A stretch of 64,000 bases of DNA from Candidatus Micrarchaeota archaeon (GTDB lineage: Archaea > Micrarchaeota > Micrarchaeia > Micrarchaeales > Micrarchaeaceae). The position numbers and the translations under genes were made by a program. Below are positions 21,455-45,353 of the stretch, in pieces. Below the pieces are notes generated by a model. The model saw only the letters and a program-made list of their open reading frames with translations, was not told where the DNA came from and made no database searches. The stretch's first letter is position 1, and each line of letters opens with the position of its first letter. Location of the stretch: contig JAKAWW010000001.1 of the NCBI GenBank assembly GCA_021816895.1, positions 493,067 through 557,066 of the forward strand. Direction: 5' to 3'.

Positions 21455-21668
21455 AGAATCCATAGCGAAAGCCCACCTCTTTCAAAGGTGGGATGAATGC
21501 GAAACACATAAATTATTAATTGTAGCTAAATATATAATATGATAGTGAAGTAAATGAAATTAACTCAGGTTGTAAAGGTAGAAGGCGATTATGAAATGAT
21601 GCCAACGGTTGAAACGAACCTTGAAACCGTGAGGAACCCCACAGAATTTATTCGTGGGAAGATGTCAG
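21455..21668 (+). mobile_element. MITE, an internally deleted derivative of the tnpB unit of the IS200/IS605 element at 42948-44309
   Basis: The left ~143 nt align to 42948-43091, including the LE hairpin and the first 15 tnpB codons. The right ~72 nt align to 44238-44309, including the RE hairpin. The junction is at about 21597. Hairpins lie at 21472-21492 and 21638-21658. Confidence 0.8.
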
Positions 21669-42289: not shown

Positions 42290-42319
42290 TGCAAGCTTTT
42301 TATTCGTAGGGCAAGAATA

Positions 42320-42339
42320 CCACGACTTTTAAGTCGTGG
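42320..42339 (+). other. LE-like hairpin 1 (upstream of tnpA)
   Basis: ccacgac-ttttaa-gtcgtgg followed by atgaat. The same stem consensus and trailing atgaat occur at 42966 and 21472. Confidence 0.65.
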
Positions 42340-42450
42340 ATGAATTGCACACTGCGATACGATAAATACTACTTCTTTTCTTGTGATATTCCGTTAATAG
42401 CAGCGTGCTGCAAATTTGCGCGGCACCGCGACTGCCAGAAACGTGAGCGT

Positions 42451-42873
42451 ATGAATGGCATAGCGAATGCAAAATATAAAGAACCATCTGCCAACGATGT
42501 TGGCCATCAGTACAACTTCCAACACCTTGTATTGGTTACGAAATACAGGTACAAAATGTTCAAGAACTCGAAAACTGTCGAGATAATACGGGATGCGCTT
42601 TATGACGCCGCAGAAAGACACGGTATGGCAATAAAAGAGATGTCTTTTGGCGACGACTATGCGCATGTCCATATGGAAGTCAGCATACCAAATACAATGT
42701 CAGTTTCGTATGCGGTGCAGTTGTTGAAGGGATACTCGTCATACAAAGTGTTCAAAGAAATGCCTCGACACATATTGCGCTATTTCCAAGGGCATTTTTG
42801 GACTGCCGGCTACAGCAATGGAAGTGTTGGTCCGAGAGATGAAAATACGCTACAGAACCACATCCGAAGGTAG
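42451..42873 (+). CDS. tnpA: IS200/IS605 TnpA (Y1 HUH transposase), catalytic Tyr apparently replaced
   Basis: YNFQHLVLVTKYRYKMF and the HUH motif AHVHMEV are present. The C-terminus reads TLQNHIRR where family members have x-x-Q-x-Y-I-x-x-Q. Confidence 0.8.
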   Translation: MNGIANAKYKEPSANDVGHQYNFQHLVLVTKYRYKMFKNSKTVEIIRDALYDAAERHGMAIKEMSFGDDYAHVHMEVSIPNTMSVSYAVQLLKGYSSYKVFKEMPRHILRYFQGHFWTAGYSNGSVGPRDENTLQNHIRR

Positions 42874-42965
42874 GATATCTCAGGACAACTGCATCTTGCC
42901 GTTTAACCAAAGTGATACTGCGACCTTTAGGCCGCAGAGAAGGTCATAGAATCTATAGCAGAAAG

Positions 42966-42986
42966 CCCACGATTTTCAATCGTGGG
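42966..42986 (+). other. LE-like hairpin 2 (upstream of tnpB, and the left end of the unit copied in the MITE)
   Basis: cccacga-ttttcaa-tcgtggg followed by atgaat. The MITE copy reads cccacct-ctttcaa-aggtggg, where two stem positions differ and both base pairs are kept. Confidence 0.75.
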
Positions 42987-43047
42987 ATGAATGCGAAACA
43001 CATAAATTATTAATTGTAGCTAAATATATAATATGATAGTGAAGTAA

Positions 43048-44265
43048 ATGAAATTAACTCAGATTGTAAAGGTAGAAGGAGATTATGAAATATTGGACAA
43101 TCTTGCAAAGATAACCAACGGCTTGTATAATTCTGCATTGTATGAAAGCAGCCAAAGATACAAGCGAGAGCAAAAGTTCTACTTCTACTACGATCTCTGT
43201 AATATACTAAAGAACAACACTCTCTATACCCTACTGCCTTCCCAAACCGCTCAGGCGGTATTGCAAAAAGTGGAAGGTGCAATAAAGTCATTCCTGAAAC
43301 TTCGCAGAAACAACGCAAATGCAGCATATCCAAAATACCACAAGAAGAACACAACATGGGTAATACCATTCAAATCGCAGCAGATAAAAATTGACGGAAA
43401 CATTTTGACAGTTCCAATGTCCATGAAGTATAGAGAAGAAAAGGGGCTGTCGCATATTGATCTCAAAATTCCCAATATGCGATATGACGGAATTGTGAAA
43501 TACATTGAATTGTATAAAACAGACAGATGGTATGCATCAATAGTGATTGACGTAAAAGAACAACAGGAATCTGTGCCAAAAGGCAATCTCTACATCGATC
43601 TCGGAGTTAGGAACCTCGCAACAGTATTCGATGGCAAAAAGGTTGCGATTTATTCAGGAGGAAAAACCAGTTCTACAAATAGGTATAGAAACAAAAAGAA
43701 TGCAGAACAACAGGCCATTCTTTCAACAATAGGGAAAAAGACAAGTAAAGAGAAGAGGCGAATTGCAAGAAAGGCGTTGCATCAATTGAAGCAGCAGCTG
43801 CACTCAATGACAAAGTCTATAGTACAAAAAGCAAAGGCCGAAAACAAAGGCATAGTTGTAGGGAATCTGTCACATGTAAGAGACAGCGCCAATTATAATG
43901 ACAATGCCAACCAGAAGATACATCAATGGCAGTTTGCTGAGATAACAAAACAACTCTTCTACAAGGCAAAGGAGTTTGGGATAAAGATAACGAAAATATC
44001 AGAGGAAGATACTTCAAAGACATGCGCACTGTGCGGCCAAGAAGCAAACGGAAGAGTGCACAGGGGATTGTATAGATGTAAACTATACGGCAAACAGTTC
44101 AACGCGGATGCGAATGGTGCGTTGAACATAATGAAAAGGTATCTCCAAATCCCATTGCAACAAGGCAGTGGGATAGGAGTAGTGGGTGTCCTGGCACACC
44201 CTGCGGTATACCGTTGGAATGAACACAGATGGTGTAATGATGCCAACGGTCGAAACGAACCTTGA
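43048..44265 (+). CDS. tnpB: TnpB (IS605 OrfB family RNA-guided nuclease homologue)
   Basis: RuvC-I YIDLGVRNLATV, zinc finger TSKTCALCG...HRGLYRC, and RuvC-III FNADANGALNI. The expected RuvC-II strand reads GIVVGNLSHV. Confidence 0.9.
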   Translation: MKLTQIVKVEGDYEILDNLAKITNGLYNSALYESSQRYKREQKFYFYYDLCNILKNNTLYTLLPSQTAQAVLQKVEGAIKSFLKLRRNNANAAYPKYHKKNTTWVIPFKSQQIKIDGNILTVPMSMKYREEKGLSHIDLKIPNMRYDGIVKYIELYKTDRWYASIVIDVKEQQESVPKGNLYIDLGVRNLATVFDGKKVAIYSGGKTSSTNRYRNKKNAEQQAILSTIGKKTSKEKRRIARKALHQLKQQLHSMTKSIVQKAKAENKGIVVGNLSHVRDSANYNDNANQKIHQWQFAEITKQLFYKAKEFGIKITKISEEDTSKTCALCGQEANGRVHRGLYRCKLYGKQFNADANGALNIMKRYLQIPLQQGSGIGVVGVLAHPAVYRWNEHRWCNDANGRNEP

Positions 44266-44309
44266 AACCGTGAGGAACCCCACAGAATTTATTCGTGGGA
44301 GGATGTCAG
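44140..44309 (+). ncRNA. candidate omega/right-end RNA scaffold of TnpB (extent is a guess)
   Basis: By analogy with characterised TnpB systems, the guide RNA scaffold overlaps the 3' end of tnpB and ends at the RE boundary. The RE hairpin 44279-44299 and the last 72 nt are conserved in the MITE. Confidence 0.35.
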
Positions 44310-44408
44310 GCATGGTATGTGGGCTTCAGAGCTTCACAAGGCAAGGACATTTACGTGCCATACCTGTCAAAATACGCAAAAGAATATTCTGGATACTGAG
44401 CCTTGCGC

Positions 44409-45353
44409 TCAGTCAATCCTGTCCACAGAATAAGGAAACATCTTTTCAACTTTTTTTGGTATCTCTTTTATAATTTTTTCTAGCTGCTTTTGGCATAATG
44501 CTGCGATTATCTCAGGCGGCTTGTTTACTTTGATTATGTAGTGCCCCTCTTCTGATATAACTGAAATCCTTCCTATAAGCGCATACGGCACCTCCATAGA
44601 GTTTATCATTTCATTTATCTGCTTCTCGTATTCACCGCTAACGGGCACATTCTTGATCCCATTATCTATGTACATGACTGAACTCCTGAATGTAGAATCA
44701 AGCATATACTTAAATGTCTGAAATTCCTTGCGCGTTGCGCGCAGCAAATTATTTAGCTGAAGCTTTTTCGCTTCTGATTGGCCTATCAGAGCCATGCTTT
44801 CGGTGCCTTCGGCATTCTTGTGGACATCAAATATGGAAAGCCTGAGCAAGTCCGCCTTGTTCTTGCTCCTGGCTATCGATAGAACGCACTCATAAATATT
44901 CGCGAAGCCCTGCTTCTCGCTTTCTGGAGCATGATGCTTTAGCATTGCGAGCTTATCGCCGCTATTAAGCGTGTCTATTGGCGGCCAGTAGCTTTCATAT
45001 GGGAATGCATGTGGATGCGAATGCACAAACATTACCGAATCATATCCAAAGCTTTTCTTATAAAAGGCAATTTCATTCTCCTCTTTGACAGCATCGGTGT
45101 TGACAAAAGTGCTTCCCCTAATGCGTACGCTGCTGCTTGGTACATATTTGTCAAATAGTATCTTTCCGTTAGAAGTGCGGCCAAATATAAAGCCAGCAGT
45201 CTCATAGTCCCTGTTCATATCCATTGCAAGCATATAGATTGCACTCCTACTTACTTCTATGTATGGATCGCTGCCTGTTTTATACGAAAATAGCATGTTT
45301 TCTGATATCTGCTCTAGTTTTATCCTTTTCTTGAGCTCTGCATAAGTATCCAT
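44409..45353 (-). CDS. JAB/MPN-like domain protein with an unknown C-terminal domain
   Basis: ETAGFIFGR provides the conserved Glu context and MFVHSHPHAFPYES provides H-x-H-x7-S. The usual S-x-x-D is not evident. The C-terminal ~170 aa are unassigned. Confidence 0.45.
   Translation of the reverse strand: MDTYAELKKRIKLEQISENMLFSYKTGSDPYIEVSRSAIYMLAMDMNRDYETAGFIFGRTSNGKILFDKYVPSSSVRIRGSTFVNTDAVKEENEIAFYKKSFGYDSVMFVHSHPHAFPYESYWPPIDTLNSGDKLAMLKHHAPESEKQGFANIYECVLSIARSKNKADLLRLSIFDVHKNAEGTESMALIGQSEAKKLQLNNLLRATRKEFQTFKYMLDSTFRSSVMYIDNGIKNVPVSGEYEKQINEMINSMEVPYALIGRISVISEEGHYIIKVNKPPEIIAALCQKQLEKIIKEIPKKVEKMFPYSVDRID

Follow-up and report, generated by a model that had tools for sequence, protein, structure and literature searches.

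A tnpB gene of a 0.93-Mb archaeal genome encodes a 405-amino-acid (aa) protein that we identify, with high confidence, as an alternative-glutamate TnpB (the group termed Ealt, TnpB2 or RuvC-II-rearranged (RIIr) TnpB), with Glu319 as its predicted RuvC-II glutamate. The gene occupies positions 43048-44265 of a 64,000-nucleotide (nt) stretch of DNA (hereafter the window) from Candidatus Micrarchaeota archaeon (assembly GCA_021816895.1, contig JAKAWW010000001.1, positions 493,067 to 557,066), and no other long open reading frame (ORF) is present at that place. Unless stated otherwise, all features are given in window coordinates and lie on the plus strand. The alternative-glutamate feature itself is already known, as a published hallmark of a large TnpB branch. 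A preliminary description of the window had noted Gly-Asn at the site of the canonical RuvC-II Glu-Asp, and had proposed that either the nuclease is dead or its glutamate has moved; the results presented below support relocation and not inactivation.

The coding sequence was assigned on the basis of family models, an alignment of the right end of the element and substitution rates. The scores of the protein exceeded the cut-offs of curated family models, i.e. Pfam PF01385 (OrfB_IS605; 52.8 bits, cut-off 30.5), Pfam PF07282 (Cas12f1-like_TNB; 56 bits, cut-off 26.3) and NCBIfam NF040570 (guided_TnpB, "RNA-guided endonuclease TnpB family"; 176.7 bits, cut-off 100). An AlphaFold2 model, calculated from 85 sequences (mean predicted local distance difference test score 88.6), displayed the WED-REC-RuvC-TNB fold, and the best Protein Data Bank (PDB) matches obtained with Foldseek were Cas12f, ISDra2 TnpB, ISFba1 TnpB and Fanzor2 (9b0l), with E values of 1e-20 to 1e-13 (1.7e-13 for 9b0l) and template modelling scores of approximately 0.6-0.7. 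The ratio of nonsynonymous to synonymous substitution rates (dN/dS) between copies and relatives of the gene was 0.06-0.14 (0.11 in comparison with a 97%-identical copy), and the TnpB protein is therefore under purifying selection.

RuvC active site and zinc finger

Analysis of the canonical RuvC-II site revealed the dipeptide Gly272-Asn273 (43861..43866) within the motif IVVGNL (residues 269-274), at the end of a predicted strand (267-273). A phmmer alignment placed "kgivvGNl" opposite "qiiavEDl" of an ISDra2-like nuclease (9yyg), and a profile of 85 homologues compared with Cas12f structures placed "gtiVvGdl" opposite "GTIQMEDL". In none of these comparisons with solved structures, whether by sequence or by profile, was a glutamate of the 405-aa protein aligned at the canonical position, so that the assignment made by eye in the preliminary description has stood. 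In the alignments to solved structures, "vsEsdTSktC" was found opposite the canonical "I(D/N)PxxTSQRC", which places Glu319 (44002..44004) at the position of the canonical proline (D/N-P-x-Y-T-S-Q). This residue is the first glutamate of the motif ISEEDTS (317-323), the remaining acidic residues of which are Glu320 and Asp321. It directly follows a predicted strand (314-318), which is the topology published for the rearranged site.

Conservation was examined in a set of 230 sequences, composed of the query and 229 homologues with a minimum length of 330 aa obtained in two database searches. Gly272 is present in 229 of the 230 sequences and Glu319 in 228. The other two residues of the predicted triad are equally well preserved: Asp184 (43597..43599; 229 of 230), which belongs to the RuvC-I motif IDLGVRN (183-189) of the D-hydrophobic-G type (not DPG), and Asp354 (44107..44109; 227 of 230), located in the RuvC-III motif NADANG (352-357) of the NADXN type. 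Both of these motifs had been described as intact. Since Gly272 is retained in all but one of the sequences, it reflects neither chance nor a private mutation, but a trait of the clade; a glycine at the canonical RuvC-II position is normal for this clade and is no sign of a dead enzyme.

The spacing of these residues points in the same direction. Glu319 is located 47 residues downstream of Gly272 and precedes the first zinc-finger CxxC by six residues (E-x6-C326xxC329), and 35 residues separate it from Asp354, compared with 34 between Glu467 and Asp501 in ApmFz2. Two features by which alternative-glutamate proteins are recognised are thus present: the canonical RuvC-II site holds a residue that is not acidic (Gly or Pro), and a conserved glutamate follows approximately 45-50 residues downstream, six positions before CxxC. 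The pattern of Yoon et al., D{P}G-x(120,160)-E-x6-CxxC-x(12,18)-C...-x(4,8)-D, fits residues 184-354 once the fourth cysteine is relaxed; the DPG (pro-Fanzor) version of this pattern gave no match in the 405-aa protein. When a 56-aa fragment starting at Gly311 was aligned to residues 459-510 of 9b0l_P, fragment position 9, i.e. Glu319, fell on residue 467, and Asp354 on residue 501, as judged from the alignment coordinates. The whole-profile match to 9b0l (5-375 versus 135-513) agrees with this placement.

The two arrangements of the RuvC-II site coexist in the same 0.93-Mb genome: one other TnpB is canonical (IAYEEL ... NPRYTT ... DRDIN), and another displays the G...E pattern (IIIGRL ... DESNTT). 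This indicates that the two patterns are alternatives. Residue 273 was also considered as an additional catalytic residue (Asp or Asn), and this was ruled out, as D, Y, N, K and H all occur at this position in the clade (Asp in 124, Tyr in 44 and Asn in 26 of the 230 sequences).

The TNB zinc finger of the protein is degenerate (44023..44088): sequence and homologue comparison identified C326-x2-C329, H338 and C344-K-L-Y347, distributed over the motifs CALCG (326-330), RVHRG (336-340) and YRCKLY (342-347). Only three of the four cysteines of the C4 type (CxxC ... CxxC) are present, with Tyr347 in place of the fourth. Classification of the 230 sequences revealed 85 C4 fingers, 65 three-Cys fingers, 76 proteins lacking a finger and 4 unclassified cases. 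The finger-less members show that this structure is dispensable in the clade. His or Cys at position 338 occurs in 49 of the 65 three-Cys sequences, in 26 of the 85 C4 sequences and in 9 of the 76 finger-less ones, a distribution that is confounded by phylogeny, and several sequences with Lys338 carry His at position 348. The enrichment of His/Cys338, together with His348, hints at ligand replacement. In the AlphaFold2 model, a predicted hairpin (336-338/341-344) would place position 338 away from Cys344. The motif R336-x-x-R339-G340 is kept also in finger-less members, and probably has another role. The incomplete second Cys pair reported in the preliminary description was hence observed again, and its CCHC-like reading is a tentative one. 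The three-Cys TNB finger of the acid-mine archaeal subclade may constitute a functional CCHC or CCCH site, in which His/Cys338 or His348 would substitute for the fourth cysteine.

Element ends and probable guide RNA

The tnpB gene is carried by a 1362-bp tnpB-only (IS1341-type) element of the IS200/IS605 family (42948..44309), the limits of which were determined by comparison with copies at loci L006, L008, L012 and L045: homology to these copies, which reside in four unrelated contexts, begins at 42948 and stops at 44309. The left end (LE; 42948..42997), compared among approximately 25 copies, contains a subterminal hairpin, CCCACGATTTTCAATCGTGGG (42966-42986), followed by ATGAATGCG; its stem shows compensatory changes among these copies (e.g. 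CCCACCTC...AGGTGGG). The right end (RE) contains the hairpin CCCACAGAATTTATTCGTGGG (44279-44299), and the element terminates with ...GGATGTCAG. Both hairpins are of the form CCCAC...GTGGG, and both stems display compensatory changes between copies. The tetranucleotide TTAC precedes the left end in approximately 20 other copies and derivatives of the miniature inverted-repeat transposable element (MITE) type found in related genomes; TCAT is found in this position at the window copy. The element thus shows the asymmetric ends with subterminal hairpins, and the absence of inverted repeats, typical of the IS200/IS605 family, as well as, in copies other than that of the window, a fixed 5' tetranucleotide. 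Relatives of the element are accompanied by genes of Y1 TnpA transposases. TTAC represents an IS608-type target and, by inference, the target-adjacent motif (TAM) of the nuclease.

A probable omega-RNA scaffold (44110..44309) extends from the 3' part of tnpB through the right end. The match of positions 44137-44299 to Rfam family sot0042 (IS1341 sense-overlapping transcript) reached 32.9 bits (E 3.8e-6) and thus stayed under the gathering score of 88. RNAalifold analysis of the last ~200 nt of 7 elements, the proteins of which are 48-100% identical, predicted 42 base pairs, 18 of them with compensatory changes. The flanks of all copies diverge right after ...GTCAG. The putative guide segment read through from the right end, GCATGGTATGTGGGCTTCAG (44310..44329; its length was taken from characterised TnpBs), begins with GCATGGTATGTGGGCT..., and no second TTAC-flanked site for it was found in the 0.93-Mb genome. 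In a metatranscriptome of the same study (run X2), one 469-nt contig (word depth 161) matched positions 44280-44309 only and then continued into the flank TCTTCAAACGGCACG.... Its divergence after the right end indicates that the junction of the right end with the flank of another copy is present in the RNA data.

On the basis of these features, we infer catalysis by Glu319 and cleavage activity of the protein. The RuvC site would be built from Asp184 on the first strand, Asp354 of NADANG and Glu319, which directly follows the fifth strand and precedes the zinc finger by six residues, with Gly272 holding the canonical glutamate position on the fourth strand. The structured omega-RNA scaffold would arise from the final ~200 nt of the element, and transcription past the right end into the flank would supply the guide. 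The resulting complex would then cut DNA carrying a guide match beside 5'-TTAC. As TTAC is the predicted insertion target, restored on excision of the element, such cleavage would promote renewed copying of the element, in line with the homing model (Meers et al., PMC10055086).

Several derivatives of the element, as well as related ends, were detected in this and in related genomes. In a 214-bp MITE (21455-21668), a 144-bp segment comprising the left end and the initial 44 nt of tnpB (94% identity) is joined to the terminal 77 bp of the right end (96%). TTAC precedes this MITE and a different flank (TCCCTTAGCC...) follows; of the putative omega-RNA scaffold, only the 3' third has been kept. 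Further matches in the same genome, outside the window (G000, C1: 900497-900599, 283002-283149 and 226100-226143), include a solo left end flanked by TTAC and a fragment of the right end. An unrelated element encoding a canonical-Glu TnpB (L005) has a right end with an almost identical hairpin and terminus (CCCACGATTTCGATCGTGGGAGGATGTCAC), which indicates that different TnpB families of this genome share ends recognised by TnpA. Short matches to the left end (~50 nt) and to the right end (~38 nt) occur across numerous genomes belonging to the same family and order (G001-G030), in which left ends of the type found in the neighbouring tnpA unit (LE_A, described below; ~50 nt, 94-98% identity) are likewise scattered. 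Some of the scattered ends are paired as MITEs of 275-470 bp (e.g. G008 C14 2623-2898 and G003 C33 2916-3382).

The window copy and its neighbourhood

The window copy is the only full-length copy of the element in the 0.93-Mb genome, the others being the 214-bp MITE, the solo left end and the right-end fragment. It adjoins, base-to-base, a tnpA-only unit (~42304-42947) with a right end ...GGTCAT. The IS200-type TnpA gene of this unit (42451-42873) retains an intact HUH motif (HVHMEV). Comparison with the related TnpA of locus L047 revealed that the window protein ends with ...TLQNHIRR* instead of ...VIKRYIEKQWDNV (LQNHIRR* versus KRYIEKQ), i.e. that His occupies the position of the catalytic Tyr and that the C-terminus is short. 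It is the only full-length Y1 gene of the genome, which contains in addition a 61-aa fragment (G000 286750). In 12 other copies the left-end type of the tnpA unit follows TTAT, and three different flanks were found behind the right-end type of this unit, ...GGTCAT. In a sister family (P0024; loci L046-L048), tnpA and tnpB form one unit, in which the two genes overlap by 4 nt.

The order at the junction is (TTAT), LE_A, tnpA, RE_A (...GGTCAT), immediately followed by LE_B (AGAATC...), tnpB and RE_B (...GTCAG), where A and B denote the tnpA and tnpB units, respectively. LE_A (CCACGACTTTTAAGTCGTGG ATGAATTGC) resembles LE_B (CCCACGATTTTCAATCGTGGG ATGAATGCG). Since the window copy abuts the right end of the tnpA unit, it is preceded by TCAT and not by TTAC. 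The lack of TTAC, together with a TnpA carrying His for Tyr, suggests that the window copy probably can no longer move in this genome, in spite of its intact nuclease gene. The abutment of RE_A and LE_B without TTAC could be an RE-to-LE joint made by TnpA, i.e. a snapshot of the assembly of a composite IS605-type element (tnpA plus tnpB) from IS200-like and IS1341-like modules with similar hairpins. This origin of the joint, or, as a smaller variant, the functionality of the three-Cys finger, is put forward tentatively, as a rather doubtful proposal.

The pair of units is located at a synteny break, inside a former membrane-protein gene. A 3' remnant of this gene (44310-44399; 29 codons and a stop, AWYVGFRASQGKDIYVPYLSKYAKEYSGY*) is colinear with the end of an uninterrupted ORF in a congener (G002 C17), and the window does not contain the upstream part. 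This absence, and the rearranged synteny with G001, place the insertion sequence (IS) at a rearrangement breakpoint. No clean empty site was found in the relatives, G001 being rearranged and G002 colinear only to the right of the right end. A 314-aa ORF on the minus strand (44409-45353), located between this right end and an amidohydrolase gene, has no Pfam or NCBIfam match. In G002 the amidohydrolase gene is directly followed by sequence colinear with 44310-44411, which indicates that the gene of the 314-aa ORF was either inserted here or deleted there.

Alternative explanations and related systems

The identification of the protein as an alternative-glutamate TnpB was weighed against three other explanations, and several observations count against it. 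The equivalence of Glu319 and Glu467 rests on alignment coordinates and not on a residue-by-residue alignment, the Rfam match lies under its gathering threshold, and the sole contig found in the metatranscriptomes of the same study derives from another copy. The remaining points concern the window copy itself: alignment of the right ends revealed that the usual TGA stop is CGA in this copy, adding 4 codons, residue 273 is Asn compared with Asp in most relatives, TTAC is missing on the left, and the adjoining TnpA is probably dead. It is mainly these features of the window copy that would suit an active family of which this copy is a stranded, decaying relic that no longer transposes and whose TnpB is possibly impaired. 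Such a relic might well stand alone as a full-length copy with the flank TCAT, beside the only full-length Y1 transposase of the genome with its altered catalytic site, and with a guide lacking a TTAC-flanked target. We consider this explanation rather unlikely, because the 405-aa ORF is intact, Asp184, Glu319 and Asp354 are all kept, dN/dS is 0.11 in comparison with the 97%-identical copy, and the exchange at position 273 affects a residue that is variable in the clade, with Asn in 26 homologues. Moreover, lost mobility does not imply lost nuclease activity.

Far less probable is a nuclease-dead derivative acting as a TldR-like RNA-guided repressor. Domesticated dead TnpBs are known (PMC10691335), and the canonical RuvC-II position of the protein indeed lacks an acidic residue; yet the compensating Glu319 is almost invariant, the two aspartates are intact, and enzymes with the same arrangement cleave DNA (PMC10530073). 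TldR-like proteins are recognised by loss of the triad and a fixed, non-mobile context, neither of which was found: the gene lies inside a mobile element with both ends, copies of which occur in many unrelated contexts, and not at a fixed regulatory locus. As to the identity of the relocated residue, ISEEDTS was one of the sites proposed in the preliminary description, and its first glutamate is the one supported here. The other, listed first, was Glu298 (43939..43941) in QFAEITK (FAEI, 296-299), an acidic residue in the helix that follows the fourth strand. This candidate was ruled out, and it is hardly conceivable that Glu298, rather than Glu319, is the catalytic residue. Its position is poorly conserved (Lys in 65, Glu in 50 and Gln in 30 of the 230 sequences) and lies in the middle of a helix (289-309), and the residue pairs with a non-catalytic Glu ("WGEF") of the ISDra2-like enzyme, whose canonical catalytic glutamate is still present.

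TnpB lineages with a relocated RuvC-II glutamate, mentioned in the preliminary description, have indeed been published (PMC10691335, PMC10530073, PMC10711439, PMC11832414). Altae-Tran et al. (2023, PNAS; PMC10691335) described RIIr TnpB clades (e.g. RIIr-5), the largest of which has Gly for Glu and a compensating Glu in the RuvX-like position (on beta-5, not on beta-4). The same authors reported that NADXN in RuvC-III marks derived TnpBs and that the zinc finger is lost or mutated in some branches. The window protein shares with RIIr TnpBs the Gly for Glu exchange, the presumed compensating Glu at the end of the fifth strand, NADXN, a length of ~400 aa and Y1-type IS200/IS605 ends, and differs in the three-Cys finger of its subfamily. 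Jiang et al. (2023, Sci Adv; PMC10530073) located the alternative Glu of TnpB2 "approximately 45 residues away", and demonstrated that TvTnpB of Thermoplasma volcanium (E323) is an omega-RNA-guided double-stranded DNA nuclease with the TAM NTGAC and without collateral activity; in the same study the mutation E467A abolished the nuclease of a mimivirus Fanzor (ApmFNuc). TvTnpB is likewise an archaeal IS605-family TnpB with an alternative glutamate (E323, compared with E319 here), but its TAM differs from the inferred TTAC, and its element carries its own tnpA.

Yoon et al. (2023, NAR; PMC10711439) defined "Ealt" as a Glu located six residues before the zinc finger, and provided the search pattern applied above. 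In the structure of ApmFz2 (9b0l; PMC11832414) the triad is D324/E467/D501, with Glu467 "shifted 50 residues". Ealt TnpBs, pro-Fanzor and Fanzor2 proteins have in common with the window protein the Glu six positions before CxxC and a comparable triad spacing (D184/E319/D354). Pro-Fanzor and Fanzor2 proteins are characterised by DPG and an association with IS607 serine recombinases, and neither was observed here: RuvC-I reads D-L-G, the ends are IS200/IS605 hairpins and not of the IS607 type, and there is no N-terminal extension or nuclear localisation signal. The window protein is therefore not a pro-Fanzor.

Domain order and fold are shared with ISDra2 TnpB (PDB 8EXA/8H1J) and Cas12f, and the predicted location of the omega-RNA at the 3' end of tnpB plus the right end, as well as the presumed identity of the TAM with the transposon target site, are shared with canonical TnpBs. 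In contrast, canonical TnpBs and Cas12f carry the Glu on the fourth strand (VEDL/MEDL), Pro at the position of Glu319 and a complete C4 finger, and the RuvC-III motif of typical TnpBs is DRDXN instead of NADXN. The IS1341-type elements of Halobacterium salinarum that give rise to sense-overlapping transcript RNAs (sotRNAs; Gomes-Filho et al. 2015, PMC4615843; Rfam RF02656) are also tnpB-only and have a structured RNA that extends over the 3' end of the gene. The score obtained here (32.9 bits versus a gathering score of 88) indicates a distant relative and not, by the Rfam threshold, a family member.

The probably dead TnpA, the MITEs, the ends common to different TnpB families and the abutment of RE and LE are useful for understanding the dynamics of IS200/IS605 elements in small archaeal genomes, although they are not surprising. 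The 405-aa protein of this acid-mine-drainage archaeon, with its putative ~200-nt scaffold ending ...GGATGTCAG and inferred TTAC TAM, may be regarded as a candidate for genome editing. It represents one more archaeal alternative-glutamate TnpB, a group whose published members are active and reported to lack collateral cleavage of single-stranded DNA. The wider significance of the finding is small and concerns mainly annotation: in this family, Gly at the canonical RuvC-II site should not be read as a mark of a nuclease-dead protein.

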